64,000 bases of DNA. Source: a virus. Lineage: Duplodnaviria > Caudoviricetes. The position numbers were made by a program, and so were the translations under genes. Location: positions 1 to 64,000 of IMG/VR virus record IMGVR_UViG_3300026270_000004. The stretch is one strand, 5' to 3'. Shown here in pieces: positions 1 through 48,300 of this stretch. Under the pieces are notes generated by a model. That model had not been told where the DNA came from. It made no database searches and worked only from the letters and a program-made list of their open reading frames with translations. Positions within the stretch are counted from its first letter, which is position 1, and every line of letters starts with the position of its first letter.

Positions 1-395
1 TGCTCAAGAATCTGAAGACCATCGTCTTGATTCTTTGCCATGATTGCCAATTCAAAATTCAAATTATATGGTATTGGCATAAAACTTTTAAACTCTTTAC
101 CATCAGCTTGTGTATTCCTGATGTATTGAGTAGGAGATACCTTACGAGTTGCATCGTAATTAAACCCTTGTATCTCAAAGGATATCCTAGGAAGGGTGAT
201 CTGAGTAGTAGTCTTATTAAGACCTACTTGATTTAACCTTTGTAAGAATTTCTGACGAGGACCATATGCCAGAGGTACTTTCATCACCTCTGTCTTCCCC
301 GAAGCCACACGACGCAATTCAATATTATTGAACAGTGTACCAAATCCGACTACTGTCTTCTTGATAATTTCGTGATATGAATACGTGCCTAACAT
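1..395 (-). CDS. gp15: Tail sheath stabilizer / tail completion protein gp15 (partial, continues past the window start)
   Basis: Not in the ORF track. Manual translation from the ATG at 395 (TAATG overlap with the gp14 stop) gives MLGTYSYHEIIKKTVVGFGTLFNNIELRR...KVPLAYGPRQKFL...TLPRISFEI...YDATRK...PIPYNLNFEL...DDGLQILEQ, which are typical T4-like gp15 motifs. Synteny gp13-gp14-gp15 agrees. Confidence 0.92.
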   Translation of the reverse strand, partial: MLGTYSYHEIIKKTVVGFGTLFNNIELRRVASGKTEVMKVPLAYGPRQKFLQRLNQVGLNKTTTQITLPRISFEIQGFNYDATRKVSPTQYIRNTQADGKEFKSFMPIPYNLNFELAIMAKNQDDGLQILE

Positions 396-1270
396 TAGAT
401 ACTACTTCCTTTATTTCCAAACTCACCAAAGGGGTTAGTCTCGGTGAAATCAACAATTGCATCTGCCTGAGTTTCAACAGCCCAGTTAGATTGAGACGCA
501 TCATTAGTATTATTTAGTGTATTATATGTAGCACTTGTCCACGCAGCACTAGATGTGTTACCTGTAAGTGTCTCAGGTATACTAAAGATACCAGACCTAT
601 TATACACCACCAACTGACGTGTGGCACTATTCCATGACTTAACTGTAGCAGTTACATTAGAGTTACCACCTGTAACAATCTCCTCAGCAGCGAAGTCTCC
701 ACTACCACCCTCTGCAACGTTAATACTTATTGCATTGGCATAGTTGACCTCAATTGCATCAACCTCTGTGATTCCTGTATCGATGTCCTCGTCGCTGTAC
801 TGGAAGAGCTCACAGCGTAGTCCCCACGTATAGATTTTACCCAACGTGAAAAATGGTACTTCATATTCGACAAACTGGATCTCAAAGATCTTATTTGCCA
901 TAGGGAAGTATACGAGATCGCCTTCATTTGGTCTACCCTCCACGATTAGTGTTGCATTATCATCAACTGCCTCAGTGAAACGAGTCCTTGATATAACAAA
1001 GGTAACTTGATCTGCTATCTGAACACCAAACTTGGTGAACATGTCACCATCTCCTCTGAATCCTGAGTTGTCTTCGATAAAAGCTTCTATTTCATACGCA
1101 CCCTCAAACTTAGACATTGTGTCTTCCCCGAAGACAGTATCCTCTTTGACTAGCGTCCTAGGAATGTAGTATACATTCTTACCGAACATCTTAATCTGCT
1201 CATTAACAAGACTCTGTGTTAGGTCTTGCTCTCCTGTAGTGCCTTGAGAGAAATAAGTGTTGGTAGCCAT
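395..1270 (-). CDS. gp14: Neck protein gp14
   Basis: N-terminal EQDL..SLVNEQIKMFG..VYYIPR, FTKFG and RPNEGDLVYFP...FEIQFVE motifs, plus C-terminal DFTETNPFGE. Located after gp13. Confidence 0.93.
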   Translation of the reverse strand: MATNTYFSQGTTGEQDLTQSLVNEQIKMFGKNVYYIPRTLVKEDTVFGEDTMSKFEGAYEIEAFIEDNSGFRGDGDMFTKFGVQIADQVTFVISRTRFTEAVDDNATLIVEGRPNEGDLVYFPMANKIFEIQFVEYEVPFFTLGKIYTWGLRCELFQYSDEDIDTGITEVDAIEVNYANAISINVAEGGSGDFAAEEIVTGGNSNVTATVKSWNSATRQLVVYNRSGIFSIPETLTGNTSSAAWTSATYNTLNNTNDASQSNWAVETQADAIVDFTETNPFGEFGNKGSSI

Positions 1271-24320: not shown

Positions 24321-24327
24321 TATTTAG
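24321..24327 (-). promoter_or_regulatory. Late promoter variant CTAAATA
   Basis: tatttag overlapping the gp7 stop, upstream of the YHYH gene. Confidence 0.45.
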
Positions 24328-27300
24328 ATGTCGTCAAAGATCAGATCAGGTGTAAATCCTGTGATTACAGTAGCACCTGTCTGGACGCTAAGGATAGCGG
24401 ATAGTGAGTAAACTGGAGTTGCACCAGCAGCAGTGATTGCGACTCTGTATTCGTCACCATCGTCTGCCTGTTGTGCTGGATTTGTGTTGTATGTTGCTTG
24501 GTTAGCACCAATGATGTTGCTCCAAGTCTGTGTGCCATACTCCTTCTTCTGCCACTGATAATTCATTGTCTGACTGTTAGTTACAGTAGAGACAACTGTG
24601 AATGCAGCAGTCTGACCTTGGTTAACAGTTACGTTAACTGGGTCTGTAGTGATTGCGATTGTGCCAGGAGTAATTCCTCCACCGCCACCAGCTTCACCAC
24701 TAGGACCTTCGCCAGCGAGTACGTCAAATCCACCGTTAATTGGACCACCGACAGGAGGTGTAAAGTCATCTGGGACTACGTTATCGATTGCGACAGCAGG
24801 TGCAGCATAACCAACACCAGATGTCTTAACGTCAATACGTGTGATACCCATCAATGCTTTTAACTTACCATCAAATCCAGAGGATGAAATAACATCCACG
24901 TTAGGACGGTCAGTGTAACCATCACCAGGATTGGTTAGTACTGCGTTAGTGATTTGACCAGAGGTAATCTCTGAGATAGCATCAGCATTTCTACCCTTAA
25001 CTGATCCAGTATATTCAAATGTGATCAGTGAGTTGGAAGATTCAATTAGAGCAACTTCTCTTGAGAATTCCTCACCTTCGATGTCTAGTTTGTCACCAGC
25101 TTCGATTGGTGGGACAACAGTTGCTGCGATAACGTCTGCGTCAGATCCAATGTATGAGAAACCAACGAAGGTTGATCCCGCACGTGGGACTTCAGCGAAG
25201 ATGATACGTGAACCAACGATCTCGTATGCGACTCCAGGTTCCTGAATGATACCGTTAAGTGAAACGATAATGTTATTCTCAGGACGTATAGTGTTAGAAG
25301 AAACACCTTCAGTTAGTGTCAAGGAGTAGAATAGTCCACCACGCTTGAGGTTGAAGGAAGATCTCAATGAGTCAAACTCGAAGGAGATATCATCTAACTG
25401 ACGTAACTTACCAACGTAGTATCCGATGAATTCAGATCCAATTTCAGGTGGCTCAGCGAATTGTATCTTGTCAGAGAATGCAACGTAAGAAGCATTACCA
25501 CCAGGAGGTTGTAAGATACCATTAACGAATGCGAGTAAGTGACCAGCAGGATCTGGGAAGTATGCCTCACCGTTAGAAACGGTTAAGTCAAATATTGTTT
25601 GCTCACCATCAAATCCTCTGAAGAAACGATCAACTCTACCTTCAAGTGTGCGAGCAGAAGAAATACCTGCACCCCAACCGAAGTCAGACTTGAGTGACAT
25701 ATTATCAAGGAATGTGCCACTAGCAGATTGTACCCAGATGGTAGCAGTAATACCTGCTTGCTCTATAGCAACTACCTGTGCGTAAGATTGATAGTCAGTA
25801 GCAGTGTAACTAGCAACACCAGCATATATGGTTGGGAAGTTAGATCCCAATTCTATCTTACCGATATTGTTACCAGCTTGTGTTAGATCAGTTAGAGGAG
25901 CACCAAGACCCACGTTATTAATATTAGCAATCCAGAGTTTGTGGATTCCATTATCAGGGTCATTAACATACTTGGTTACTACAGCAGTGAATCCAGGATT
26001 CTTCTGGACTGTACCTTGTAGGAGTGAAACTTCATCACCAACATTAAATGTATCTGAGATACCAGTGTCAATGATTGCCACACCTAGATTTAATTCTAAG
26101 GTTTGGACACCATGTATCCACTGATTAAGTTGAAGTTGTGTACCACTAATACCCTTAATGTCTAAGATGTAATCAGTAACACTACCGTAGATAATATCAC
26201 CAGGTGTCCATGGTTCCTCAAGTGTTTCTACATCAATTGCGATTCTACCACCTTCATTGCTTACCAAGGATCCAGACTTACTTGTGTAGTTGTCCATGAA
26301 TCCTTCAATAGATCCAACTTTACTGAAGAACCAATCACCTGTAGCGAATGCTCCTTTCTTAACGTTGATTAAGAATCTATCAGATGGAGCACCAACTGTA
26401 TGAACTGCACCACTATCAACACCCTCTAAGATATCACCGTCTGATATAGTACCAGCGATAGTATGGAGTTTAATGAATGATGTGCCATTCTCAGAATTAG
26501 GTTTCAACATCTGTAATACAGATCCATTATTAGAAGTACTATTCTGGACTTGTGCTGACTCTCCATTTATAAACTGATCGTATGTACCTGGAGTTGTCTG
26601 TGCAGCAACTGTTGGGAAGTGAGTAAAGAGTTTATAAATTAAACCTTCGTTTGCATTGATAGTGCCGATCTCAGCGTAAGCATTTGATGTGCTACCAAAC
26701 ACAACATCAGCAGCATTGAATCCACCTTGTATTGGACATTCTGAAGGATCAGATGGGAATGTAGCAGCAACCCTAGGTACTCCAGATCTTCTTGTGACTG
26801 CCATTATCTGAGATCCAGCATTAGACTTATCAACTTGTAGAAGTCTGAATCTACCATCATGAATATAAGAAGCACCAATCTCAAACCAGTCAGCAGTACC
26901 AGTCAACACATAGAAGTATGGTTGCTTAGTAAGACCAGTTAGTGAATTCTCAGATGCTGGAATGTAAGTTAATACATCACCACGTCTGAAGTTATTAGGA
27001 CGCTCAATTCTAATTCTATACTCAGCACGATCATAACCTACGTTAATTTCTGGAGTTAGACTTACTAGATCAGGATCAGTATTATAATCAATACCCATCT
27101 CATAATTAGTAACTCTGTTTGTGCAATCTGTAGATGCTACAAATGTTACTCTTGCTTCAGTTGGGAATTGTGACATCTCCAAAGCATACTCAATTGGGTT
27201 GAGTGAAGAGTCAATCATAAACTCAGCAGCTTCTTGATTCCACTCAAGTTTTTGTGGAGACTCAATTGTATAAACATCATATGGACTCCATCCAGATTCA

Positions 27301-30300
27301 TTGAAGTCATACAATACACTCTTAGTATATTCACGAACTCTTGCAAGACAGAATAGGAGATGAGTCCTTGTTACATCCTGATATGCAATGAAGTTACCTT
27401 CACCATCAAACCAGTCTTGTGTCATTCTGAATGCACCAGCATTACCCTCAGTAACTAAGTCATATCTTATTGCTTTAACACAATCATTAGCAAAGTCAAT
27501 AGTTAAGTTAGTATTTGGATAGTTGATCTGAGTCTCAGCGAATGCTCTACCAGCAATTGCTTGCTTATTGAAGAGAATCATATTAGAAATTCTCTTACTG
27601 TTATTGGTTCCATTACCGAGTGCATCGGTAAACAATTCCATCAATGTATCAAGTGCTGATGTTACGTTATAGCAAGTACCTGACTGGAAGTCAGCATTGC
27701 TATTGTATGGGAATGTCTTGGTTACAGTAGACAAGAAATTAGTCTGGACATTTGCTGCCTTATCGATTGTCTCGATAAAGATATCAGCTAATGTGTTAAT
27801 AGCAGATGCAGTTTCTTGACATGTCTGATTCCATGAACCAGCATTACCTTGACCACCATTTACAGTGTCATAAGTAACAGTCTTATCTCTGATTACAACG
27901 TCAGGAGTATACTTGACGGGCCAAACGATTGGTAGTGTGTAAGATCTACCAGCAACATTATTAGGATTGCTAATAGCATCTGATACTAGTGCCATTAGAG
28001 TACCAATTTCACTCTCTACACCAGAACCTTCGTTACCTGTATAATCCTCTGAGACTCTACGTGCACGATAGTAATCTAAATCTGTCCTCAATGGATATGC
28101 ATAAGACAATACAGATTGGACAGGTAAGATCTTACCGTCAGCATAATCTGTCACACGAGGATATGTGTGGTTAGTAGCATTCTGGTCTTGACTACATGTG
28201 AATGTTAATCCATTAGTGTCAATCGTGATAGCATCATCTGTGCGTAATGAGTGATTAGCAACAGTCAATGTTAGTTGACCTGTAGTAGGCTCATAGTATG
28301 CATCTGTTGGTGTTAATGTTGTGCCATCGTTAGTATTAGTAATACAGTTAGATGCAGCAGATACGAAGTTATGCTTATAGTTACCACCCTGTATAATACA
28401 TCCTTTGTTTGCACTTACGAATGTATGCTGATATGTCTTACCAGCTGGTGATACACCTACGTTAATTCTTATCTTACCATCTTGTATTCTAATTCCTTTT
28501 TCAATACATGATTTGAATACATGATTTCCTAGGAATGTTGATGGGACACCTTTAAGTACTTGGACATCAAATTGAGTTGTAGTTACATTAGATACTGCCA
28601 ACCATTCATTACTTGCATGATCTGTAGGTCTTGGATATAGGTGAGTAGATCCATAAGCATCTAGATCACAATCAAATCCTAAAGCATAATCTTGGATGTA
28701 AATGTAATCATTTGCTTTCCATATACCATTAGTCTTAGCAGATACAAATGAGTGTTGATAATTACCACCACCTATAACAGCACCAGGTAATGCACTGACA
28801 AATGTATGATCGTATAGATCAGCAGTAGCAGCGATATTTACATCAACTGTAATCTTACCACTCTGTCTGTGTAAGGTGTTATTCTTAAAGTATTCAAATG
28901 TATGAGTGTGGTTACCACCAGCAGTGATAGCATTATTTGTAGCAGAAGCAAATCTGTGTGTATGGTTACCAGCAACAGTAGATCCTACATTAACAGTAAT
29001 TGTAGAATTCTTCTTCTCTAATCCATCAGTAACAGCACTTACGAATGTGTGTGCGTAATCACCATTACCTCTAATTGTTCCTCTGATAATTGCACCAGTT
29101 TCAATTCTCTCAATTTGATGAGTTGTAGTGTTAGAAGAAACACCAACATTAACTGTATATGTGTTTGCATCTACAACAGTAAGAGTTAACCAATCACCAG
29201 ATGCAGGGTCTTGTGCTCTAGGATAAGCATGCTCAGTTGCAAAACTATCTTCCTGACACTTGAATACAAAACTCTCATTAACTATCTGAATCTTGTCACC
29301 ATTTGAGAATGGGTGAGCACTGTGAGTAATTGTTAATACACCTGTTCCTGGGACATAAGATGCTGTTGATGGAGTGAATGCATTTTCAGATCTTACAAAT
29401 TGGTGAAGTGTTGTGTTACTTGATTTACCAACATGGACTGTGATTGTATCAGCAGTAGCAGCAAGAATAGGTACTGAAGTATTATAGAATGGGTCAGTAG
29501 ATCTTGGATAAGCATGCTCACTACCGAAGCTGTCAGCATTACACTTGAATACTAGTGACTCTTCCTCAATGTAAACTGCTTCATGTGCAAACTTAAGACC
29601 GTTAGTAACAGCACTTACGAATGTATGAGGTGAAGTAACAGACTGAGGAGCAGATGCTAATACCATTACATCGAATGTATCTTCAGTGATGTTGTATACC
29701 TCTAACCACCTATCACTTGGGTAATCAGTAGCACGTGGGTATGTATGGTTATCAGTAGGATTATCAGCATTAGCAATACCAACGTTAACTGTAATTGTAG
29801 TAGCAGTTGGATTCAACACTGCGAGTGCTGTGCCAGATGCAGGGTCAGTAGCACGTGGATATGGATGGTTACTTCCATTATTATCAGCATCACAAGTGAA
29901 GGTAACACCACCATTAGCAATGGTAACTGTATCAGCAGTTGTTAAACTATGTGATCCAATTTCCAATACCAACTCACCTGTATTAGGATTATAAGTTGTG
30001 CCAGCAGCAGCTGTGTATGTTGTAGTGCCATCGTTAATAGCATTGTTAGTGCCACTTACGAAACTGTGAGTACCAGTAGATGCAGAGCAGTTGAAGGTTA
30101 TAGAGTTATCGTCAAACTTAACTCTGTCTCCAATCTTCATTCCATGAGAAGGAACTGTTGCTGTTAATACACCAGTTGTAGGATTATAAGCAGCATCAGT
30201 AATTGTAGTTGCACCACCACCCTTGTAGTTGTGTGGTCCAATGGTGAGCACCATATCACCTGTAGTAGGTTCAAATGTTGCATCAGAAACTAGGTAGTTA

Positions 30301-33300
30301 GCACGAGGTGTTGATCCTACATTAACATCAAATGTGTTACCAGAAACATTAGAAACTTCTAACCATTTCTCTGAAGCATAATCTGTAGGTCTTGGATAAG
30401 AATGATTAGTTGCATTGTTATCCATTGCACAGGTCATTACTAGAGAATGATCAGCGATTCTAATATGGTCACCATTAGCAAATGGGTTGTTAGCAACTGT
30501 TAGTTGTAAGTTACCAGTAGTAGGATTGTATGTAGCACCAGTTGCTGAGTACTTAGCATGACCAACTGCCTTAATTTCGATAGCATGATCATGTGCTCTA
30601 TCTCTCTTCGCCTTAAGTCCGTTAGAAGCGAATGATTGGAAACTGTGTGTGAATGATCCACCAGATCTGATTGATCCTCTCTTAATAGCACCAGTCTTTG
30701 CTCTCTTAAATGTATGAGTAGATGTGTTAGTAGAAGGAATAGTATCTAATACTTGGACTCTAAATGTGTCAGTAGTTACGTTAGAAATTGTTAACCACTT
30801 ACCACTTGCAGGATCACTAGATCTTGGATAGTTGTGCTCAGTAGCATGATCATCCTTACCACATGTGAATACTAATGAGTTATCAGCAAACATGATTTGC
30901 TCACCATCACTCATTCCATGATTAGCAACAGTAACAGTCATAAGACCAGTACCACCACTATATGAAATTGCAGTTGGTGTTACACCGACGGCAGGTTTGA
31001 ATACGTGAGTTGTAGTGTTAGAAGATACACCAACGTTAACAGTAATGGTACTATCATCAACAGCAGTTACAGCAACAGCATCTTGATATGCTGGGTCGTC
31101 ACCAGATGCACCACTCTCTCCATTTGCACGAGGATAGAAGTGATCAGTCTGATAGTTATCTAATGCACAAGTAAAGCAGAATGCTTTATGGTTAATGTAT
31201 ACACTGTGAGCAGTTGTAATACCGTGGTCAGGACCAACAGTGATTACCATTACACCTGTATTAGGATTGTAATCTACATTCTGAGGATCGTAACTTACAA
31301 ACTCAGATTTACCAACGAAGATCTTGTATGTGTTAGCATCGATATACTCGATAGGCTTCCACTTACCACTAATAGGATCAGTAGATCTAGGATAAGTCTT
31401 GTTAGTGGTACTTCCGTCCATTGTGCAACGCAAGGTTATTGCATTGTCATCAATCTTAACAAGAGATCCTTCATCTAATCCATGAGCATTAGAAGTAATT
31501 GTTAAGTAACCTGTTACTCCATCAAATACAGCATTTGTAGGAGTGAAGTTATCGATTGTAGTCCTTGGATATGCATGAGTAGATCCATAGTTATCCTGAC
31601 TACATTCCATTGTGATACCACCGTCAGCAATCTGAATGCTCTGACCAACCTTAAGTGGGTGAGTGCCAATCTCAATCTCTAAATGTCCTGTTGTTGGCTC
31701 GTAAGATGCATCAACAGGTGTGTATTGGACAGCAGCAGTTGTGCCTACTTCAACATCAAAACCATCTGTAGATACGTTAGAAATTTGTACCCACTTACCA
31801 CTGATAGGATCTGTGCCTCTAGGATATGCATGACTGCTAGAATCATTATCCATATCACATGACATGGAGAATGCATAATCTTCAATCTTAATGTAGTCTC
31901 CATTTGAGAATCCATGCTTGGATACTGTTAGTGATAAAACACCAGTTGATGGTACGTAACTAGCAGCAGTTGGAGTATGTCTTGTAACACCGTCATCAAT
32001 AATTCTTAGAGACTCATTGTATGCAGGATCAGATGTTCTAGGATATGCATGGTTAGTAGAATTACCATCCTTAGAGCAAGTGAATGTTAAAGCATTCTCA
32101 GGAAGTTTGATACTGTCATTACCCTTCATTAGAGTAGCAACAGTTATACTTTGTGGTCTAGCAGATACGAATGTATGAGTTGTAGTATTAGAAGAAGGTA
32201 TGTTGAATAAGACTTGAATATCAAATGTATCCTTAGTTACATTCTTAACTATCATCCACTCATCACTATATGGATCTGATGCTCTAGGATATGCATGATT
32301 AGTTTGATTACTATCCTGTGTGCATGTGAATGTTACAAATCCATCATCCACCATAATTCTGCTGCCATTCTTAAGACCATGATTAGCAACAGTCAATGTC
32401 ATAATACCTGTAGAAGGAGTATATGCAGCATTGGTTGGTGTTAGTTTTGCAGGAGCAACAAACTTATGTTTGTAGTCACCACCAGAAGCAACAGTTGCTC
32501 TGGTAATAGCACCAGTAAGAGCACTTACAAATGTGTGAAGAGTCTGGTTAGTTGATGGGACGTTATCAAGTACCATGACATCGAATGTGTCATCAGTTAC
32601 GTTCTTAATAGGAATCCACTTATTGTTTACTGGGTCACTAGATCTAGGATAAGGATGGAGAGTTTGGTTAACATCTTGTAAGCATGTGAATACAAGTGAG
32701 TTAGTGCCAATCTTGATACTCTCATCTTCCATGAATCCATGATTAGGAATTGTGATGGTCATCCAACCTGTTGCTGGATTGTAATTAACAGCAGTTGGAG
32801 TATATGATTCACCAAGTGCATGGAAGGTGTGGTTATATGCACCACCTGCCTTCACACACATACCATTACCACTTACGAAACTGTGAGCAGTTGGATGAGT
32901 AATCTGACCATTACCAATATCTAATGTGATAGTACCAGTCTGTCTGTGTAATGAGTTATTTTCACAAGATACAAATGTATGATCGTAAACATCATTAACA
33001 CCAGATTTACCTACATGGACAGTGAAACTTGTGTTACTTGCATTAGAGATAGGTAACCACTTACCGAATGTAGGATCTGTCCTTCTAGGATATGTGTGGT
33101 TAGTAGCATTCTGATCCTTAGAGCAAGTGAATGTGATTGCATCCTCATCAAACATTACAAAGTCATTTGCTTTCCAAACAGCATCAGTTGCCACAGATTG
33201 AAGCACATGAGTTGTAGTGTTAGAGATAGCACCTTCACCGAAGAAGTTACCAACGTTAACATCAAATGAGTTACTACCAACATTAAATGCCTTCAACCAC

Positions 33301-36300
33301 TTACCACTAGCAGGGTCAGATGATCTTGGATATGCATGATCTGATGATTGACTATCTTCATCACAACGGAATGTAAATGCACCATCAGCAAGAAGAAGCA
33401 TATCACCATTCTTAACAGGATGACCATTAAGAGTGATTCTCATGGTACCTGTAGAAGGAGTGAATGTAGCACCACTAGGTGTCATCGTGCTATGGTTACC
33501 AAAGCTATTGCTCATGGTAACTTCCATAGTACCAGCAGTAGGATTGTAAGTTATATTTGTAGGACTATGTGAAGTCTTACCTACTTCATGGATAGGAATA
33601 TTTGTATCGAAGAAGTAATCCTTCTTATGAGTAATGCAGTTTGCATCAGCACTTACGAAAGCATGAATTGTAGTATTTGTTGAAGGTACTACATCTAATA
33701 CTTCTACGCTAAATGTATGAGAAGTGACATCATGAATCATTATCCACTTACCACTTACAGGGTCAGTAGATCTTGGATATGTGTGGTCGGTAGCATTGCC
33801 ATCCTTAGCACATGTGAATGTCAAGGAGTCGTCAGCAATCTTAATGTAAGTATGTGGAATGAATCCATGATTAGGAACAGTAAACTTAAGATGTCCTAAA
33901 TTAGGATCGTAAGATACATCAGTTGGTGTATGAGTTGTACCAGGTCTAGGATATGAATGGTTAGATGAATTTCCATCAGCACCACAAGTAAATGTTACTG
34001 CACCTTCGTCTAGTCTGATAGAATCTCCAGCATGACGTAGAGCACCAACAGTAGAAGTTGAGTAAGTATGATCGTAAACACCACCACTTACAATCTGTGC
34101 TCTAGTAATGCAGTTACCAACAGCACTAGAGAATAGATGAGTTGTTGTGTTACTCTGAGGAATAACTGTGTTAACTGTAACATCGAATGTGTCTTCAGTA
34201 ACACCATGTACTTTCAACCATGATCCAGAAGCAGGATCACCAGGACGAGGATAAGCATGAGTAGTCTGATGATCATCTAAAGCACATGTTAATACTATGC
34301 CATAATCATCGATCTTAATCATGTCACCATTTTCAAATTTATGACCAACGATTGTTATTGTCATAACACCTGTAGTAGGATTATGATTAACGTTTGTTGG
34401 AGTATATCCTGGGTTAGGAATGTAGGTATGGACACTCTGATCTGAGATCGCACCATCACCAACGTTAAGTGTTATAGTGCCATCTCTCTTAGTAATTCCA
34501 TTTGCAACAGCAGACGCAAATACGTGAGTTGTTGTGTTAGTGGAAGGAGCATATGATAATACTTGTACGTCAAATGTATTAGCAGTTAAATTAGATCCTA
34601 ATACAGGTTGCCATCTATTTGCATATGGGTCAGTTGCACGAGGATATGCATGATCACTACCTTGTCCATCTTGATCACAACGGAAGACTAATGAATTAAT
34701 AGCAAACTTAACATCATCACCTTCTTGCAATCCATGAGGATTAGCAGTAGTGATGGTCATTATACCTGTAGTTGGATTATATGATGTACCACCAGTAGCA
34801 GTCATTGGTGTGCCATCGTATAGCACTTCTATTGATGTGTTATAGAATGGGTCATTACCATTAGCACGTGGATAATAGTGGTAACTATTATTAGCATCTA
34901 AGAAACATGTGAAGTTAATAGACTCAGTTGCTAGTCTTACACTTTGTCCTCTTCTTAGATTGTGATCACCAATAGTAGCAACTAACTGACCGTTAGCAGG
35001 AGTAAATGTAGCAGCAGAAATTGTAAATGGTATTGTAGGTGTTCTACCAACATATAGATCGAATGAATCCTTAGAAACGTTTCTAACATCCATCCACTTA
35101 CCACTCATCGGATCTGTTGATCTAGGATAAGCATGAGTTGTTGCATGGTTATCTTGACTGCATGTGAATGTTACTCCACCGTCAGCAATCTTAACGTAAT
35201 CTCCTTCAGCAAAGTTGTGGTCAGCAACGGTCAATCTCATTAAACCAGTTTCACCGTTAAATTCACCACCAGTAATATTATGAATACTTTCTCTACGGAA
35301 GAAATGCTTTCTATCAAGTGTCATACTTAATAGACCATCAGCAGGAGTAAATGCAGCACCAGTAAGACCGTATGTTACTTGAGGTGTTGTACCAACATTA
35401 ACAGTTATAGAATCTGAAGTAACAGCAGTAATTGCTATTGGCTCATTATGTACTGGATCTTTAGGTCTTGGATATGAGTGCTTAGTAGCATGGTCATCCA
35501 TATCACAAGTAAATGTCAAGCTTCCTTGTGACAGTTTGATATGTGTTCCAACTGCTAAACTATGTGATCCAATTGTTAATGTAAGAGCACCAGTAGTGGA
35601 GTTGAATGTAGCAGCAGAAGGTGTAAATCCTTTGATTGGAGATGGACCAACATTAACAGTAAACCAACCATCTTCCTGATTAGACTCAATAACATCTAAC
35701 CACTTACGTGTAGCAGGATCAGAAGATCTAGGATACACATGATCACTATAATGGTTATCCATTGAGCAAGTAAATGTCATGGAATTTTCCATGATCTGAA
35801 TCTGCTCACCAGGGGCAATCTTATGTCCAGATACTGTTAGTTTTAAAATACCAGTATATGCATCATATTCAGCATAAGTTGCAACATGGGTAGAAGCACC
35901 AACGAAACGATGCTGACCGATCTCCATTTCTAAATGACCAGTATTCTGATCGTAAGTAGCATTAGAAACGTCATACTCAACTTTAGGAGTAGATCCAACG
36001 TTAACTGTAAATAGATCCTTACTCTCAACAGATTCAACTAATAACCACTGATCACCAGCTGGATCTTTTGGTCTTGGATATCCATGCTTAGTAGCATTAT
36101 TATCTTGAGCACATGTGAATATTAAAGATCCATTTTCAATTCTTATTTGATCACCAGTCTTAAATCCGTGGTCATCAATCTTAATTCTTAATACTCCACT
36201 ATCAGGATCGTATGATGAATCTTGTGCAGTATGAACTGAATGCGATGACATTCCATGATCAGGAATAGTCAATCTCATAATACCTGTATCAGGATTGTAA

Positions 36301-39300
36301 GTAGCATCAGTTGCCTTATGATCAGTACCGTATGTTTCTAATACTTCAATAGTAGTATTACCAGCAGGATCACCAGATCTAGGATAAGAATGAGTTGTAG
36401 CATTATTATCTTGATCACAAGTGAAGTTAATGGAGTTGGTCTTCAATCTAAGGAATGTACCCTCTGTATGATTGTGTGATCCAACATTCATTATTAAATC
36501 ACCAGTACTGGAATCATATGCAGCAGATGTGCAGTCATACTTGATAGTAGGAGCAGGACCAACATTAACTGTAAATGTATTAATGTTAGCAGGCTCACCA
36601 GCAGCAATACTGTCTCCACCTTGGATACCATATCCAGAGTAATCTGTTCCAGCAAATTGTCCAGGAGCAGAGTAAAGACCTGTATATCCACCACCTTGAG
36701 TTTCAGCAGATCCAACAGATACACCGTCAATCCATAACTCAACTCTACCTTTACCAGCACCTTGGTTACCACCAACGTTGATCTGCCATACTAATTCATG
36801 ATCTCCATCATCGAAGTAAGATGATAGGTTGCTGATCTGTAGATCAAGCATTGCTAATCCACTCTCAGTATGACTAGCACCACCAGAATATGAGTTAGCA
36901 CCATTACCAGCACGAAGTCTTAAATATGTGCCATTATCTCTAATACCTAACCATGAACCAGCACCAGTTCCACCTGCTTCCCAGATGGTGCCATCAATAG
37001 GACTAGATGCTAATTTAGCAATACAACGGAATACAGCATCTTCAGTAGTTACTATACCAGTGCCACTATCAGTTGTAGAAATCTTATCTTCACCAACCTT
37101 GAAGGATCTAGTAATAATATTATTATCTTCACCTTCTATTGGACCATCTTCATCAGAATTGAATAGTGAAGTTACAGGTCTTGGGACAGCATTATAGAAT
37201 CTTTGATCTACTTCCCAACCAGCATTATTACTGATTACCTGACCCTTCATTGCACGGATTGCAAATTCCTGTGCTTTATTAATAATCCAAAGAGATTCAG
37301 TAGGAGCGTTAGTAACGTGATCTAAGTTACCATTATAATTGGTATAAAACTCAGATGCATACTGAAGCATATTAGTACCACCATACTTGAGGTTGAATAT
37401 CATCGCTCTCAATATGTCAGTAACGTCATGCACACAGTTAACAGGACCGCCAGGAATTGCTAAGTTAGGGAATTGGACTAAACCAGCAGCAACTGCTTGC
37501 TCTGCAATGTATCTAATGTTTCCATCGATAGCATCACCACACTCAGCAAATAACTTATCTTTAGGATTCTGATTGTAACTTTCAACATTACTTGCTCCAT
37601 CACCTTGCTCCATATCATAATCTTTACCAAATGCATTACGCATTGTGCAAGTTAAGATATCTCTTAGAAGCTTAACTACAGTAATAGATGCTTCCCATTC
37701 AGTCTCAATATGCTTAAGTGAATTATTTTCTGTCTCAACATATAATGCAGCAGCATCCCATACTTTCTCATTACAGTCGAAACGTATGTCATGAACCATT
37801 GCTTCGATCATGTCTAAGACATCATCTTCACAGTTAACATGACCATCAGGAATCATTAGGTTTCCATACTTAGAAAGGTCATTCATTATGCTGACACATT
37901 CTTTAGCGATGACTGCTCTGTTATTCCAGATCATATCAGCAGCATCAAGATACCTATCATTGTTTGCTCTATTCTGGTTGTTAGGATATCCTTCAGTATC
38001 CTTAACGATTTCAGAATCTCTATATGCTGCCTTAGAAGTCCAGATAGGAGTGTAATATTCTTCATGTGCCCATGCAGCAGCATTTAGTGCATTACCATCG
38101 TTATCTAATAGTGCACCAGCAACTTCACCAGGAGACATTAGAAGGTTATTAATTGCCTTCATAGCAAGCATCTTAGTATAATCAAATGCATCATTCAATG
38201 CAGCAAGCTCATGCTCAACATGGAGGATATTCTTTTGATCATCAAGATACTTGTCAATAACAGCTTGAGTCTGGAATGTACCACCAGTAACTAAGTCAGC
38301 AATTACACCAGGAATAATGAAGTCCTTGATATCTCTCTCACAATATGGTTGACCATATCCAGGCATTTCAAGGAAGTCAAAGACAACACCATCAATAGTT
38401 TTCTGATACTTGTCTTGAATATATCCAGCAACTTCTTCTGCAATGTAATCTCTATTCTTCCAAAGTTGGAATCCACCTTCTCTGAATCTCTGATCATTAG
38501 GTGCAATAACCTTAAGAAGATCAGTCATCAAAGTATCAACTTCATCTTGAACTGCCTGTGAAGCAGGAGATGCAAAGTTGTTAGGTATTCTATATCTTGT
38601 AGTATATGTGCCTGTTAGAGTTGCACTAGTTGTAGTGATTATTTCCTTAGTAAGTTTTGCTACTTCATTCCAAACATATAGAGATTGTAGAATCTCTTCT
38701 CCAATGAAGTCTAACTTACCACCAACTGTTAGATAAGTCCTAGCAGTATAGATTGTATGATAGTTACCACCTTCTCTAAGGTCTTTAATTAGAGCACCAA
38801 GGATATAGTCCTTAGTATCTCTGATACATGTATCAGTACCACCATAACTGTTTTGAGCAGGGACATCACCACGAATGTTGAAGTCACTAAATGCTGCCTT
38901 CATTCGACCCACTGCTTCTTCAGCAATGTAAGCACCGTTAAGGTCGATGATATCAGCACAGTCTCTATATTCCTGACGACCTAAATCAACGTCCTCAGCA
39001 ATAATTGCTAATCCTTCATAATCGATTCTCTTAGAAGTTGTAGCAGATGATCTCTGACCACTATACTTAGCGTATACTTCCTCAGTAGACAATATAAATG
39101 GTGCTTCACCATCTAGACCAAATACGATATTAGGATTATTATAATCTACCTGAGTAGGTGCAGTGAATCCAGTTGTATAAGCACCGATACCCTTCCAGAT
39201 GCAAACGTTATCAACGTGTCCAGACCAATGAGTAGCACCGTTAAAGTCTTGACCAACGTAACATGCAGCATAGAGGTAATCGTTAGTATCAGCAACGTTT

Positions 39301-42300
39301 CCACCAAGTTGAGCACCGTTAATATACAACTGAGTAATTCCGTTGTTTCTGCTAACTGCAATATGATGCCATGTACCAGTTGTAGTAACTACGTTACCAC
39401 TGGTTAATAATTGAGTAGTGCCATTATAAACCTTAATTGCTTGTGCATCTTGGACAATTCTTAAACCTTGAGCAGCACTTAAACGACGGAAGTCAAATAG
39501 TGTTTGCAGGGTTGTATTTGTAGCAGAACGGAACCAACCTTCAATTGTGAAGTCTCCAGTTCCGAAAGCATAGTCATAAGAAGCAGGACTGCTTAATGCA
39601 CCATTAGTAGGAATATAGATGGATTTAGTACCACTTAATTCTGCTTTCTTAACAATTACACTTTGAGTGCAATTAGTGAAAGTTAGAGTAGAGTTAGTGA
39701 TATATTCACCTGCTTGGAATACTCCAGTCACAGGACCAGCAAACAACCACTTAAGACCAGAATTAACTCCAATTGCTTGGAATAGTGCTCCAGAAGTCAT
39801 ACCCTTGATCTGGTCACCCATTACGAATAAACCAGTTGACTTATCCTTATAACCGATCTTAGTTGTCCTGATAGTTTCATTTGCTTCAAATGTACCATCA
39901 GTAACAGCAAGAGCATTAACATTGGTTAAATTACCTGCTGTCATTGCAGTTGTAGCAATCGCTCTCAGAGTGTCAATATAAGACTTAACATTGGCACAAT
40001 TGTTGATATCTTGGTTATTACCAGATGCATAGTTAAGATCGTAGTTATTAGCAGGAGCAACACCACCAGTGTAAGTAGTAGGATCATTAAGGTTATATCC
40101 CTGTCCAGAGAGATCCTTCCAATACATTAGGTTATTAATCGCTCTATGCATGAATGTGCCAGCAGCAGTAAATGCATGAACTGCTTCTGCCTCTTCTCCA
40201 ACAATACCGTTAGTTAGAGGTGTGCCATCTTCATTAAAGAATTTTTTAGTAAATTCAACTGTATTGAAGTTACCACCTTGTCCAACATCATTAGCAATAG
40301 CATCAATCATGTATCCAAGGTCTCTTCTGCACTTCTCTTGGTGTGGTGAGTATGTGCCACCTGCTTCGACAGGAAGATCATTTAGACTTGCATTATTCAA
40401 TGCTTCATCGATAAACTGATGTAGAGTTGTAATTGCTGCTTGAACGTCTGAGCAATTGTCAGAATCAGTATTATCAGCATTAGATCCAGCAGTACCGTAA
40501 GGATTGCCAGGTGAAGGGTCAGCAGTGATTGTAAGGTCTTGATATGCAGTCCAAGAGTCACCAGAGTTAACAGCACTGATTGTTCCTGAATATCCGTTTG
40601 CAATCGCAACATTCATGCGATCTTTTGCTTTTTCGTAAGCATACTTGGTTTCTGCAACCTCAGCATTAACATAAGTGAATGTTCCGTTTTCGTCGAAGTA
40701 TTGTTGGACAAACTTACGAGCATAGCGGTTTCCACCAGCATAGATGTCTATAGAAATTGCATCGATGAAATATTCAAGATCTCGCTTACATTTCGCATCT
40801 GAAGGAATTGAAGAAGAAGGATATTGCGTTTTCATGTCATCAAACGCCATTCCAGCAATCATTGCCTTATTCTTCTGAATCATCCTGTAAGCGTCTTTAA
40901 ATCGACTCCAGTTGTTAGTAATAACGTCGGAGGGGAAATAGTAGTCTGGATAGTCAATTGCAATTGCTGCTTCTGCAAAATCGATGATTTCTTGCTTATT
41001 ATTAGAAATATTACGTCTTGCATCAAGGAATCTGTTTGCAGCGATTCCGTGGAAGGTAGAAATTGGATTTCCGTAAAATGCCTTCTTATTACGAATAACC
41101 ATTCCATCAGTAAGAGTACCACCACTTAATTGACTATAAGTGACCTCAGTAGTCCTAACTTGCTCAAAATTCAAGAAGTCAGCATTAATTCTATTCTCAG
41201 AGTTATAGAGCTCAGTAGGAGTGATAGAAGATTGTGAAATATCATCTAAGATGACATTGGGGTTAGTTAGTGAAACTAAACGCTCAAATAGTAATCCAAA
41301 GAATGTTGTTCCCTTGTTAATGATTAATTCATCAACAACTTCACCATTAATAGGATCTTGATAAGGAGCAATGTATGTAATCTGGCCTGCAATTCCTGAT
41401 GAGGCAGAATAAATGTACTCGTTAAGTTTAAAGTCAAAGATACCAGTCTCAAACCTAGGAGTACCTGAAGTCTTACTTACAACCACTCTATCAGTTACAT
41501 TACCCTGATTATCTACGTTAGTCTCTTCAATGTATGCAGTGTCACCATCAAGGTTGGTAAGTGATTCACCAAACTCAAATATGGTAGGAGTATTAAGAGG
41601 GGTAACTGACTCGATCAATGCAGCGAATAATTCACCTCTCTTGATTTGCTCATTAAGTTGGAATGTGCCACTTACGTTAATAACGTCAATGTGGTTAGTA
41701 CCTGAATCAATAACAGTACCAATGACATCTGATAGAGCACCTTGGACTTGTTGTCCTAATGTTGGGAAGATACCATAGTTAGATCCACCACCATCATTGT
41801 AAAGTGCAATTCTGTAAATGGTAGTAGGAGTAACAGATAGAGTCCTATAGTTAACCTTAGATGGTGGTTTAGGTGGCTCAGCAAATACTAAGTTACCACC
41901 AACGATCTGATAAGAAGTACCAGGTGACTGAATGATACCATTCAGAGTTATCATCAACTGGTCTTGCTTAACGATTACAGTTTCACCCTCAACAGTAATT
42001 GGGAATGACTTCTTAATACCATCAAACTGATCTTGGACGTTATCCATCTTCTTAACAATAGAAGTTAAGATTTCCTCAGAAGATGTTAGACGCTTCTTAC
42101 GGAAGAGAACCTCAGTATTGTTGTAGTCAGTATAGATTGGTTGAGCAGCACCGAATGATGTAATCTGGTTTACATTACTATAGTTGTTAATATTAACCTT
42201 CTTAGTAAACTCAGTACCAATACGTCTTCCAGATACGTCCTTACCACCAGTCAGTTGTAACTGACCAAACATATTGAAACCAGCAGGGTGGTTATTTTCT

Positions 42301-45300
42301 AATACCTGTGTCTTCCATTCTGTAATAGGAATCTCAGACTGGACAACATATGAGAAGTTCTGGTAGAAGAAACTATCTTGAATCTTCTGGACAATCTCAG
42401 ATGGTTTACCAACGTCATCAATAAATCGGCCTGGTGTCTTCGTTAGGGAGCCGATATTCAGCACACCACGTGCTATTGAGAAGTTATCGATAATACCAGA
42501 TGCTTTAGATATCTCACCTGTTACCTTCTCTCCTTCTGCCCAGTCACCAGTATAATCAACGATCTTAAGAATCTTAGGACCAATCTGCCAACCAGTGTTA
42601 GTAGAAACCTTACCTCTTGCAGTAGAAGTTTCAGTAGAAGATCCTTGGAATACTTCTTCTCCTTCTAAGAATCTTGAAGTCTCGATAACAGCAACTGCTT
42701 TACCACCGAATACTTCAGTTAGAAGTGTCTGTCTACCAGATCCTTGAGTTAGGAAGGTAATATAAGATCCACCTTGTGCAGCAGCTAAAGTAAGACCAAA
42801 TCTCAACTGGTCACTTTCCAAACCAGCTGCTTCACCAGCAATAGCATAGTAAGTCTGTCCTTCAACCAAACTGGTTAAACCTGCGGTAGATGGTTTTGGT
42901 AATTCACCTTCTGTGCTACCAATATCATCTGCTCTAAACTGGACTTCAGCACCAGTGGTAATACCATGTGGGAAGTTAAACTGTAGGTAGTTAAGGTCTA
43001 AGTTAACAACGTAGTTAAATTCTGATTTTAGAGTAACATCAGGTTCTGATGAGTACCCAGCACCACTGTTTTTAATGATAATTTCACTAAGACGATTATT
43101 CTTAACAATTGCTTCTGCATCAGCACCTGATCCACCACCACCTTCGATTACAACAGCAGGAGTAGAAGTATATCCAGAACCTGGGTCAGTTATCTTAATC
43201 TGACTTAGTATTGATGTATTGAAGAGTTGTAAGTTAACAGGGAAGGTAATCTCTGGTTTTAGAGTATAGTCATGTGAATAACCGAAACCAAATTCATTAT
43301 TCTTCAGTCTCTTAATCTTACCAATATTAGTACCTGTTAAGAATACAGATGCACCAGATCCTTCTTCAGGAATAACAACAGTTACAGATCCACCAGAACC
43401 TGCAAGAGTTGCTCCTAAGATACCAGGAATAGAATCTATGTCAATAGATGCAATAGTATAACCTTTACCTGGATCTGCTACAGCAACACCAGTAATAGTT
43501 CCTGATCCAACCTCAGCATCAAATTCAACAGTAACGGTTGCTTTACCACCTTCACCGTCTCCAGCTATAGGGACTTCATAGTATACACCAACAGCATATT
43601 CAGTACCTCCATCATTAACAACAACCTTCTCAACTTGTCTGAAGGATGCAATGTCACTAATGATAGGTAACTTCTGATAGAAACCACCAGCAGATACTAG
43701 TTTAATAGTATTGATCGGTCCAACTGCTCTTACAGAAGTAGTTGAATAGTATGAGTAGACATTATCAAATGGGTCAGTGCCTACCTCAGCATTTAATCTT
43801 TCAGGTTCCTTATCTAATCTGAATCTAAACTCAGTATCACTTAGTATCTCAGTTACCTTAAATGTACCTTGGAATGGTGTAGTAATAACATCAATGAATG
43901 AGTTATCACCAACTGGAGAATCAGCACCAGTCCTTGATGGATCAAAGTAGTAAGAGATGTTAGTTACATCACCCAATACAGAGAACTTAACGAATGGATA
44001 ATTATCTCCACCAAGAGGAATACCTGGTGTGCCAGATCTTGTAATATTATTAAATGAGTATTCTAGTTTATACTGGTTATCTTGTGAGAATGACAAGTAA
44101 TAACCGAAGTTAGATGTATCAGATAAGTCGAAGACATACTGATGATTTCTAGTAAACTCTAGAGTTGGGTGCTTCGCATAGATGTTAACATTATTAATAG
44201 CATTTGAATTAAATGCAGGGTCACTTACAGCAACATCTCTAATACCATATGTAAATTCTCTAGATCCAATTATCTGATCGATGAAGAATGATCCATTGAA
44301 TTGATCACCTTGGAATCCTTCAGTGAAGATAATATCTCCAGCATCGAATCCATGAGCATCATTAGATGTGCAATATACTAGATTTGTCCTTGTGCTATTA
44401 GTCCTAATAATATCCTTCTCAAGACGTGCAGTAACACGAATCTTCTTAACAGATGCAAATCCAGAAATAACTACACTCTTCTGATCATCTGCCTCAGTTA
44501 TATTACCAGCATTGATAGAAATAACGTCTTCTGGAATGTATAGTGAACCAGGTTGAATCTCTACAATCTGGACTGTATAATTGTTACCTAGGTCATATGG
44601 AAGAGTTCTAGCAAAATCACTAATTGGTGTTGAAGTAGATTCCCATGTCCATGTAACACCACCGTCAGTATCAGCACCAGTAGTATGTGTTGGAGGAGTT
44701 GTGCCTGATACACCAGCACCACCTGCACCTACAACATATACATTTAACTTATGCCATACTTTCTGTCCTACAACATATAGAATACCTGAATCCCACTCTG
44801 GCATATCAGAGTCAAGATACTGAGGCATTGGGTATGGATGCTGAGTTAGATCAACAGTAAACTTACCTGCATCATCTATAAATGCCCAGTTGATTACGCC
44901 ATCACTTTGGACACCACCAGTATGTACTGGAGGAATAGTACCAGTAGTACCTGTGCCTTGTGATTGGAAGATCTTTTTATCATAATACCTTCTTTCACCA
45001 GTGGTTACTGCTACACCTGCTGCCCAAGGTATCTCTGGTTCTTCAACATTAAAGTATGATCCAGAAATCTGGTTTACATCTCCAACATCAGTTTTAAAGA
45101 GATCAGTATTATTAAAGGTACCGTATATCTTACCAACCTGATACTTGTTACCCATTCCAGGGTTGAGTAAATCATACTCATTTGGACAACCAACAATAGT
45201 ACCATATGCACTAACAACTTGACCTGAGAGAGTATTAGTATACTGTTGAATTATAGAATTCTTTGTAAGTTTAACATCTTGGTTGAAAGTAAATTCAAGG

Positions 45301-48300
45301 ACGTTATCAACTTTCTGATACAATGCATCACGCATGTAGAACTTACTGATAACATCAGCAGTAATCTGAAGTCTCTTACCTAGAGGTGATGGAATAGTAG
45401 AAGTCTTAGTAGCATACTCTGTAAGAGCATTACTGAATGTATATGTGCCAGGATTCATTGTAGAAACGACCTGAGACATATCCAATATTTGTAGACCACC
45501 AGCACCAATTACCCAGTTGCTTAATGCAGCACCAGATACATCAGTCCAAATAGTAGGAGTCTCAATATCAGAGAATTCAATAGTAGTATATGCTGTTAAA
45601 CCAGTAAGAGTATATGCTGCTCTCTTATCATGCAATCTATCAAACTTGATTAGTGCAGAATCAGAGATTGATGTTGTAACAGGAATCTCAGCAGTTGGGA
45701 CAAGGTATGTTCCGTTATATGGAGCAGCATCATCAAAGACTAGATCATCAATCCAACCAATCAGTGAGTTAGCTGTATTAGGTCCACTATACTTACCAGC
45801 AATAGTAATATCTGCAATACTAATATCTGAAGTAGACTGATAGTTAACTACAAGGTTACCATTCAAGAATACCTCATACTGATACAATCCAAGAGATTCT
45901 TCTCTCTTCTGGAATGTTACATGCACCCAAGCAGCACCACCAAATGTAGTCCAATGAGTAGCAGTAGCAGAAGTTGCTACTTCTGTTGAGTTTACATATA
46001 GGACAACTTTCTCATAGTTACCACTAGTAGCATCACCATCTATTTCAACTTGAATAGAATCACCTGCAATAGGAGTTACATCAAATAATATGGGTTTGTT
46101 ATTACCTGCATGATGTGCAGTAGCAACTGACATCCATGCTCTTGCACTCCACTCTTTAGTAGTTAAATTCATGCCTGGGAATTTAACAGGAGATATTCCA
46201 CTCAACTTAAGTGAACCTGTTCCAAACTTCTGGATTGAAGTGTCGATGGAAACATTAGAAGGAGTATGTAATGCTGGAGTTACTAATTCTTGCTTTGTAG
46301 TATCTTCAACAGCGTTAGCAACGTTATTGAAACGATGTGATGCTAATTGATCAGGTTGTCTACGATCTACTGCAATAATACAGTCACCAGAACTATCTAC
46401 TGAATGTGACTTAGCTTGGAATCCAATACGGTCAGTATCATCAACCTTAGTCTCTTTAATAACTGTTCCATCATACTTAAGATAATGAATAACAGCATAT
46501 CTCTGATTCTCTGATTCTTGAACGTCAGATACAATTGTATAGTTGCCAAATACATCTACACTGATACCTGCATGTTGAATATTCTCAACCTCTCCAGAAA
46601 TATTAACTGTCTTACTCCAAGTCCACTGACTATTAGCAGTTGCTAATGGGAACTTATTAACCTGAATCTTCTCAAACTTCTGAGTAGCACCGTTATATAC
46701 ATCCCAGATACAGATTACATCATTGTAATCATCAATTGTGAATTCTGGGTTTCTTACATATCCACCAACTGTAGGAATCTGTCTGATATACTCAATCTCA
46801 AGGTTTGCACCGTCATAGAAGATTACACCGAAGATACAGTCATCATTTTGGTCATTAACACCAACAAAGAAGAATCTATCATCAGATATCCATTTGATCT
46901 GATTGATCATCTCAGAATCATTTGCAGATGCAATCTTTCTCTTCTCTACAAGGTCACCATCTAGATCACACTGAATGATCCACATATCGTTAGGATCAAT
47001 AGAGTTACTATCTGTATAACCTGCAATGTAAATTCTCTTCTCTTGATCAAGTGCAATACTTGTTACCCAATCCCTTCTAGAAAGACCTGAGATACCTGCA
47101 ATTGCCTTCTGCCACTGTAGAATACCATCAGGAGCATTAGCATTATTAAATCCAGACTTATACAGACCTAACCAAACATCAGGATTATACTGGTTATTGT
47201 TAGGATCATATGTCTGACCAACAACATAGATCTTATCATCTTCTTCAGATTCATCAATATACATCTTGATGAATTCTGCCTTCTTAACACCTGAATTAGT
47301 AGGTAGTAAGTTTCTCTCCCAAACCTTTTGGCCTAGGTCGTCAAACTTGGCAAGAAATGCTGCTTGATCACCATCTGTCTCAAGGACACTACCACAGATA
47401 TAAGTGTATCTGTCAGCAGTAGTCAATGTATGATGTATAGAGACTTGACCTGTTGCTTCCTTATACTCAGTGATCCAGTAACGAGTCTTCTTGTATTGCT
47501 GAGGATGAGATACCCTAATTTGAGGAGGATTGTCAGCATCATATCCATTACCAGAGTTAATGATATTGACAGTGTTAATCTGACCAGTACCTTCAAGGTT
47601 TAGAGATAACTCAGCATCTTTACCAGATGCAGTAATCAATTCAAATGTAGGTGGAATATCATTATTATATCCAGTACCAGCTTGGACTATATTAATTCTC
47701 TCAACACCAGCAACAACCTTAACTCTATAGGTCTTATTAGTGTTATCAATGACAGGACGTGAATTTACAATGATTTCATCCTGTTGACGTAACTCATGTC
47801 CAGCTTCAGTTACGATCTTACCGTATGGACGGTCACCAATGATCTCTTTCTGATAAGCAGTGATCCTTTGACCCTTAACAGAATCAATAATAGCAGATGC
47901 ACCAAATCCACCAGTACCTTCATTATCGAAGAATACAGTATCATTAACCTGATAAGAAACACCTGGGTTCTCAATAACGAATCCATCAATCTGAGCATTC
48001 TCAAATTGAGTAGTTGTCTCAACTTCAATATCAACTCTAGACTCTGGTGATACTCTTGGGAAGTAATCATAGATTTGTAGAGTTGCCTCTTCAGACATCT
48101 CTAGAATCTCTTGTTGCTCATTAGCATCAATCAAACCATCATTGTTAGAGTCTTGTATTTCAAAGATGATAGGATATCCTTCTTTCTCAGTAGTAAGGAC
48201 ATCTGCCTCTTGGTTTGGTTGACGATCAACATCAATATCAACATCAGTGTATGGATCTCTATAACGGACAACTCCATTAGGAATATTCTCTTGTGTTGCT

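Follow-up and report, generated by a model that had tools for sequence, protein, structure and literature searches.

Domain insertion is usually one level deep. Small barrels such as the phage endosialidase barrel, the P22/CUS-3 coat I-domain and the E1 FCCH domain are insertion domains, each lying within another domain as a single insertion into an unrelated host, with no recursion. A 2026 survey of 2.7 million domains and 48,551 insertion events gives Si3 of Prochlorococcus RpoC2, with eight domains on six levels, as its most complex example (PMC13114784), and in the crystal structure of TelSi3 the domains SBHM-2 to SBHM-5 include elements from distant regions (PMC10895346). Here we describe a 64,000-nucleotide (nt) stretch of viral DNA (Duplodnaviria; Caudoviricetes; IMG/VR record IMGVR_UViG_3300026270_000004, positions 1 to 64,000; hereafter the window), in which one giant gene at the position of the baseplate wedge gene gp7 holds 27 copies of a single module of ~105 amino acids (aa), nested within each other to a depth of 11.

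The nest resembles Si3 of the cyanobacterial RNA polymerase beta' subunit (RpoC2) in that a small beta domain is recursively self-inserted, domains are discontinuous, and some hosts take more than one insert. In contrast to the 8 copies and 6 levels of Si3, however, there are 27 copies and 11 levels here, two of the copies are circular permutants, and the nest sits in a putative virion baseplate protein rather than in the trigger loop of an enzyme; in addition, related phages carry different trees of the gp7 module. No RNA polymerase chain was among the top 50 structural matches of the module, a result that does not exclude the SBHM/HABAS family. Recursive self-insertion is not new in kind, and the gp7 nest is a deeper and larger case of it, in a probably different domain and in a putative virion protein; the published case with the greatest depth that we found has six levels, little more than half as many. 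An earlier, sequence-only reading of this DNA had known of no description of nesting at such depth, which holds for 11 levels but not for recursion itself. Our literature search found no description of nested domains in any phage gp7, nor of recursive self-insertion in a virion.

Arrangement and predicted fold of the modules

The giant gene is an uninterrupted single open reading frame (ORF) of 9,560 aa on the minus strand (24324..53006), and the nest takes up aa 5476-8303 (28098..36581; all modules lie on the minus strand). This region is tiled exactly once by 27 copies of the module, whose segments are termed a, b1, b2, c, d and e in canonical order. Nine copies are contiguous, 16 are split and 2 are circularly permuted, with rebuilt lengths of 92-114 aa. 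Motif expressions fixed before any model training were counted in aa 5400-8400 and in the other ~6,700 aa of the protein; the former held 27 a-hairpins (after removal of one false match and addition of one miss), 27 Cys motifs, 27 H-x-Y-P-R motifs and 27 c strands, and the latter almost none. A hidden Markov model (HMM) built from the nine contiguous copies gave 35 matching stretches, many of them to part of the model, and every gap between these matches was a short c, d/e or b2 piece. HMMs of the individual segments gave 27 matches each inside the region, with no match at or above 0 bits outside the nest in the giant ORF.

A left-to-right stack parse of the resulting 135 tokens closed 27 modules, left none open and reached a depth of 11. 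When the 50 runs were permuted, none of 200,000 shuffles could be parsed, and the best of them left 6 modules open. The last-in-first-out (LIFO) topology is therefore exact and far beyond chance. The tree reads P0(M1(M2(M3(M4(M5(M6(M7(M8(M9(M10,M11)),M12,M13(M14)),M15),M16),M17(M18(M19(M20(M21)),M22(M23(M24(P25),M26))))))))). Domains of one fold sit in the loops of their paralogs, the hosts are discontinuous in sequence, hosts are themselves inserts, and there are more than two such levels. The claim of the sequence-only reading that 27 nested copies leave nothing over at a maximum depth of 11 was thus borne out. Its count of 9 uninterrupted and 18 broken copies also holds, except that two of the 18 (its D0 and D25) are circular permutants rather than split copies, and of the limits that it gave for the region, 28110-36581, the second stands while the other moves to 28098.

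Occupied insertion sites lie between a and b1 (five), directly after the conserved Cys (one), between b1 and b2 (two), between b2 and c (five) and between c and d (eight), all as originally counted. Five further insertions (M11, M15, M16, M21 and M26) had been placed between d and e, and in all five cases the preceding module has no e strand directly after d. This reading draws only on the 4-residue strands that follow the five modules (QIVS, TVAS, TLMK, SIRS and TIRG), the sole one of which that lies within our structural model is a beta strand there (model residues 434-436). We accept it as likely, and under it our tree is identical to the D0-D26 tree first proposed; the alternative is that they are tandem siblings within a single loop. 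Three hubs (M4, M7 and M18) have 2-3 loops occupied in each.

Only two modules start other than at segment a, and these are the permutants. P0 (28098..36581) has the order c-[tree]-d-e-a-b1-b2, with pieces at 36549-36581 (c), 28329-28397 (d, e) and 28098-28328 (a, b1, b2), and thereby encloses the whole nest; rebuilt, it scores 105 bits over HMM positions 6-110. P25 (29769..30080, depth 11) has the order d-e-a-b1-b2-c, is inserted directly after the conserved Cys of M24 and scores 93 bits once restored to canonical order. In both permutants the e-to-a joint is N-D-G-T-T. The c-to-d junction in turn tracks the insertion state: where d follows c directly, c has the ending V-x-V-L and d the beginning S-N-T-T-T-H, and where a module is inserted between them, c ends in V-N-V-G and d begins with G-G-x-Y-x-H.

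The intact module M11 (34089..34421), folded alone with AlphaFold2 (AF2) from a 68-row alignment of intact copies, was predicted to be a compact eight-strand beta-barrel (predicted local distance difference test [pLDDT] 91.9; predicted template modelling [TM] score 0.85). The sites between a and b1, after the Cys, between b1 and b2, between b2 and c, and between c and d all map between predicted strands of this barrel. Its nearest folds are the E1 FCCH domain (Z 7.6-8.4; 4p22_B, Z 7.6 over 81 residues, root mean square deviation [rmsd] 3.0; 9mc4_A, Z 8.4 over 77 residues, rmsd 2.4) and the phi92 endosialidase barrel (Z 7.5-7.8, up to 19% identity), together with phage tail and connector barrels, FNR-type FAD-binding barrels and the CUS-3 coat I-domain. 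Taken together, the endosialidase barrel (4hiz, 1v0e), the P22/CUS-3 I-domain (6mnt) and E1 FCCH (4p22, 2v31) are the best structural neighbours (Z 5.2-8.4, 77-83 residues, 10-19% identity), and that several of these are insertion domains fits barrel ends that lie close together. Cyanophage structural proteins modelled in BFVD resemble the module, at TM 0.83-0.92.

No Pfam family scored above its cut-off on the nest, Foldseek with the single module found nothing in the PDB at E <=0.001, and a PDB sequence search with the module profile gave nothing convincing beyond a weak match to 7c5x. The match to the E1 FCCH family (PF16190) stayed below the Pfam cut-off, at 21.4 bits against 29.5 bits and with no single stretch passing; in one ESM Atlas neighbour cluster, 28% of members carry PF16190. 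The match to the iota-carbonic anhydrase 7c5x was treated as spurious (33 bits overall, each stretch with an i-Evalue >=2). Its three weak repeated matches pair module residues 12-56 with three repeats of the diatom enzyme and are probably due to chance. Among 68 diverse intact copies, G18, H27, F44, C46, Y57-P58-R59, D62-P63, V83 and H95 are invariant or nearly so, and the conserved His/Cys/His/His set may form a stabilising metal site in each barrel.

We hold it very probable that aa 5476-8303 consist of 27 paralogous ~105-residue beta-barrels joined by recursive insertion rather than in tandem, with the hosts completed when the chain returns to them. Each inserted barrel would enter and exit through one loop of its host, and five or six loops would be used for this: beta2-beta3, the position after the Cys of beta4, the position after YPR, the position before strand c, the long c-d loop and probably d-e. 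The barrel would tolerate insertion because its two ends adjoin, and the same adjacency would explain both circular permutants. Judged from the topology, the product would be a single-chain tree with a stalk (P0-M1-M2-M3-M4), two main branches (from M5 and from M17) and hubs at M7 and M18. Folding would proceed inside out, the leaf barrels closing as they are made and the outer ones waiting for up to 2,612 residues (M1) or 2,717 residues (P0), and evolution would act through gain or loss of whole barrels at the leaves. With less certainty, the tree may form a rigid, branched outer appendage of the baseplate wedge, structural or adhesive, which would bear the lectin-like, Ig-like and other modules of gp7, or set the distance between them, for contact with the host surface.

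On this reading, one small fold can host its own copies in five or six loops and tolerate circular permutation, which implies that closure of a barrel remains possible once thousands of residues have been added in between. For protein design, the nest would then map in a natural protein the sites that permit insertion. It would also be a difficult case for cotranslational folding and structure prediction, and it suggests a way, not described before, in which large phage appendages are built from a single chain. A bolder version strikes us as doubtful: a dendritic scaffold in which each barrel is metal-locked (through the a-hairpin His, the b1 Cys and His, and the d His, with outer ligands up to 2,700 residues apart) and in which leaf gain and loss retune baseplate reach, geometry and host range. 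If true, it would make gp7 a natural system for the deferred, inside-out folding of very long chains.

Split modules, orthologs and rival explanations

If the nesting is real, split modules should behave as domains. All 18 split or permuted modules, rebuilt in silico, gave one end-to-end match each to the HMM of the nine intact copies, at 55-117 bits compared with 127-172 bits for the intact copies. Mean identity was 37.5% between rebuilt and intact modules and 43.9% among the intact ones. Measured against four ortholog lineages, the ratio of nonsynonymous to synonymous substitution rates (dN/dS) was 0.24-0.32 for split and 0.25-0.31 for intact modules; split and intact modules are under equal purifying constraint. 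Orphan pieces of <=35 aa had dN/dS values of 0.33-0.40. The motif residues are kept in every piece, the d-strand His, the Cys and the YPR being present in 27 of 27 modules each.

Orthologs were drawn from IMG/VR and metagenome contigs at 73-91% identity, and the same module order recurs in more than 10 independent contigs across this range. All 27 modules are kept in seven loci from at least 5 distinct contigs, down to 73-77% identity, with no indel of >=8 aa save one 8-aa insert. Other orthologs differ by complete barrels. Two of them (L008 and L009) are shorter by 105 aa that correspond to P25, and M24 (29586..30209; pieces 30081-30209 and 29586-29768, split directly after the conserved Cys by P25) is contiguous there. 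In L011, 211 aa corresponding to M24 plus P25 are missing, and M23 (29397..30296; pieces 30210-30296 and 29397-29585, split between a and b1 by M24) is contiguous. L011 and L030 are without 107-109 aa corresponding to M10 (34485..34811, an intact leaf at depth 11, 150 bits), so that M9 (34422..35027; pieces 34812-35027 and 34422-34484, split between b2 and c by M10) is contiguous in both.

A maximum-likelihood tree of the 771 aa upstream joined L009 to L011 (support 99/97); the remaining members of the surrounding clade possess all three modules, which suggests that the three differences are precise losses, from the leaves inward, rather than gains. This polarity relies on a midpoint root that is not secured, because no outgroup was alignable in the upstream region. 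Either polarity fits a process in which only complete barrels come or go. The origin by repeated insertion that had been proposed for the nest is consistent with these whole-module indels, while the midpoint-rooted tree suggests that the differences observed are losses. The 8-aa insert (GNGGATAD in L028) is common to L006, L009, L011 and L028, which are all of the more distant orthologs; it lies in the b1-b2 loop region of M23 at aa 7837 (nt ~29495) and is the sole small indel across 2,900 aligned residues.

Other gp7-like proteins have different, smaller trees that also close fully, with 5 modules in P-TIM40, 16 modules at depth 8 in L012/L036 and 11 modules in L022. Complete closure in several of these distant proteins was judged with a three-token grammar. 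It served this purpose only and discriminates far less well: for the window, 17 of 2,000 shuffles matched the result for the real order. The five-token automated parse is unsuited to orthologs, because as identity falls tokens are missed by the short HMMs of b2, c and d. A tblastn search found the module in 327 cyanophage records, including the isolates P-SSM2, P-SSM4 and S-SSM7, and the idea is therefore testable on phages already in culture.

The M7 subtree, a stretch of 851 aa with eight modules, four of them split, was modelled with AF2 from an ortholog alignment of 12 rows and reached a mean pLDDT of 77. Orphan pieces were predicted about as confidently as intact barrels and with the correct strand pattern. 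Closure was read indirectly, from the residue ranges over which single-barrel PDB chains aligned in an exhaustive structural search. Chains that match the isolated module also match the intact M10, M12 (33621..33944, in the b1-b2 loop of M7; 163 bits; the best-matched barrel of the model, at residues 484-591) and M14 (33174..33500; 150 bits). For M8 (34032..35282; pieces 35028-35282 and 34032-34088, split between c and d; rebuilt 107 bits), which occupies model residues 38-118 and 438-454, five single-barrel chains align over 35/36..455-458, covering 61-77 residues at rmsd 2.7-3.4 (for example 6tek_B, 77 residues, rmsd 3.0, Z 6.1). The hub M7 (32853..35384; rebuilt 55 bits) is in four pieces, 35283-35384 (a), 33945-34031 (b1), 33579-33620 (b2) and 32853-32939 (c, d, e), and one single-barrel chain, 2eqn, has 69 residues aligned across model residues 1..850 (rmsd 3.1, Z 5.1). 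In both modules the alignment values match those of the same chains on the isolated module. The model thus supports the reassembly of parsed partners into barrels for M7 and M8 only. Foldseek with the 851-aa model returned only low-TM multi-domain matches in the PDB.

The sequence-only reading had expected rebuilt modules to align like intact copies, ortholog indels to keep to subtree boundaries and predicted structures to pair the parsed partners rather than linear neighbours. The first two expectations agree with the 18 end-to-end matches and with the whole-module differences at P25, M24 plus P25 and M10, and the third with the superposition of M8 and M7, these two only, on single-barrel PDB domains.

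Several points weigh against recursive insertion as we propose it. The structural matches of the predicted module are middling (Z up to 8.4) and reflect a common small-barrel arrangement, not family membership. Closure in three dimensions is seen for 2 of the 18 split or permuted modules, in a predicted model only, while for M1-M6, M17, M18 and M22 the pairing of far partners would follow from the non-crossing parse. In principle, one piece could take the place of another of its type, and the last seven closings alone allow 3! x 4! = 144 assignments. The partner-assignment test was without power: a Mantel comparison of a-hairpin and d-strand similarity among split modules gave r = 0.12 and p = 0.21, and its intact-module control reached only p = 0.05. 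When the halves of M1, aa 5487-5561 and aa 8172-8207, were predicted as a complex from ortholog alignments, the score of 0.31 fell just short of the mark of 0.32, which is no answer and was not used as evidence. Finally, the protein is a putative virion component, whose baseplate role would follow from sequence comparison.

These points leave room for barrels that are completed by partners other than the LIFO ones, either by exchange of same-type closings or in trans from neighboring gp7 chains (3D domain swapping), so that a cross-linked mesh rather than a tree would result. The 8 "d e" and 5 "c d e" closings are paralogous and similar among themselves, the concordance test could not separate true from permuted partners, and, if T4 is a guide, each baseplate would contain several copies of gp7. 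However, any non-crossing pairing would be extremely unlikely unless the order mirrors insertion history, some orthologs have M9, M23 and M24 in one piece just as the parse has them, and in the AF2 model the parsed pieces complete M8 and M7 in cis. We therefore give exchanged partners a low probability. Still less credible is the notion that only the nine contiguous copies are real domains and that the orphan pieces are decayed remnants now serving as linkers. It could account for the lower scores of the rebuilt modules, although these are partly due to HMM training on intact copies, and for the slightly higher dN/dS of orphan pieces; yet the motif residues survive in all pieces, no segment is left over or missing, purifying selection on split modules equals that on intact ones, and the orphan pieces have high pLDDT, the right strand pattern and structural alignments that span the split modules. 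That the arrangement is an assembly or frame artefact is barely conceivable. Repetitive protein-coding DNA is open to misassembly, but because the paralogs are <=54% identical in protein there are no long DNA repeats to collapse, and the uninterrupted ORF and the recurrence of the same order in independent contigs argue against it as well.

Course of the chain through the proposed tree

Under recursive insertion, the chain would enter P0 and pass along the stalk. M1 (28398..36548) is split between b2 and c into pieces 2,612 aa apart, 36324-36548 and 28398-28487 (rebuilt 73.5 bits). M2 (28488..36323) is split between a and b1 (36237-36323 and 28488-28718; 103 bits), and M3 (28719..36236) between c and d (35988-36236 and 28719-28772; 102 bits). 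M4 (28773..35987), the first branch point, is in three pieces, 35892-35987 (a), 31986-32135 (b1, b2) and 28773-28868 (c, d, e), and scores 74 bits when rebuilt.

The first main branch leads through two modules split between c and d, M5 (32457..35891; pieces 35637-35891 and 32457-32486; 86 bits) and M6 (32817..35636; pieces 35385-35636 and 32817-32852; 98 bits), to the hub M7, which holds the intact M12 and, in M13 (32940..33578; pieces 33501-33578 and 32940-33173; 96 bits), a module split between a and b1 by M14. On the way back the chain meets the intact modules M15 (32487..32816; 172 bits) and M16 (32136..32456; 169 bits).

The root of the second main branch is M17 (28869..31985), split between c and d (31734-31985 and 28869-28922; rebuilt 117 bits). 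It encloses M18 (28923..31733), whose three pieces are 31551-31733 (a, b1), 30561-30608 (b2) and 28923-29012 (c, d, e; rebuilt 90 bits). Within M18 lie two modules that are each split between c and d: M19 (30609..31550; pieces 31308-31550 and 30609-30665; 99 bits), which holds the intact M20 (30990..31307; 127 bits) and M21 (30666..30989; 172 bits), and M22 (29013..30560; pieces 30297-30560 and 29013-29072; 112 bits), which holds M23 with its inserts and the intact M26 (29073..29396; 156 bits).

The gp7-position gene and its surroundings

The giant ORF is the gp7-position protein of a T4-like marine cyanomyovirus, an assignment that we make from gene order and family matches. It lies behind gp25-like and gp6-like genes in a wedge cluster, with the gene order of P-TIM40. 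The upstream gene (53012-55108) encodes a gp6-type baseplate wedge subunit with 62% identity to gp6 of P-TIM40 and 58-61% to those of P-RSM6, S-SZBM1 and S-WAM1. In P-TIM40, the gene after gp6 is PTIM40_99 (7,351 aa, annotated "putative structural protein"), the ortholog of the giant ORF, and its P-SSM4 equivalent, PSSM4_080 (7,312 aa), is annotated as gp7, the baseplate wedge initiator. The N-terminal 1,333 aa match the baseplate-wedge families phrog_2885 (E 1.5e-161) and phrog_708 (E 4e-40) and also the virion protein family phrog_701, and the genes downstream match gp9-like and other wedge PHROG families; Pfam PF23786 reached only 16 bits on the giant ORF, against a cut-off of 27 bits. A baseplate location would follow from this synteny and these PHROG matches. 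T4 gp7 is about 1,000 aa long. With T4 gp7 and the gp7 proteins of cyanomyoviruses (P-SSM4 PSSM4_080, S-SSM7 and P-SSM2) the giant ORF shares the place after gp6; the N-terminal wedge matches and the annotation of its orthologs point the same way, and the giant cyanomyovirus proteins carry the same module.

A megablast search of the flank against phage records gave no match. Downstream of the wedge genes are two further giant structural ORFs, at 2083-9807 (2,574 aa) and 10392-17756 (2,454 aa), which match phrog_697 and phrog_358. Neither contains the barrel module, which within the window occurs in the giant gene only.

Outside the nest, the giant protein holds other domains. Directly upstream of the nest, a ConA/LamG-like stretch (36582-37200; aa ~5290-5475) leads straight into the first c strand of P0, and the nest itself may be an insert in larger domains. 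A second LamG_3 domain farther upstream (aa ~4480-4605) is above the Pfam cut-off at 59 bits. Cys-containing helical repeats flank the nest on either side (aa ~4000-5290 and 8304-8700), and a weak match to the Pfam family Phycobilisome (PF00502) falls within them at approximately 37360-37530 (aa ~5159-5215; 21.0 bits against a cut-off of 22.2 bits, E 3.6e-4). The C-terminal ~100 aa of the giant ORF (24327-24700) resemble an Ig-like, Hoc-like terminal domain, with matches to phrog_4069, "Hoc-like head decoration" (E 3e-4), and to phrog_613.

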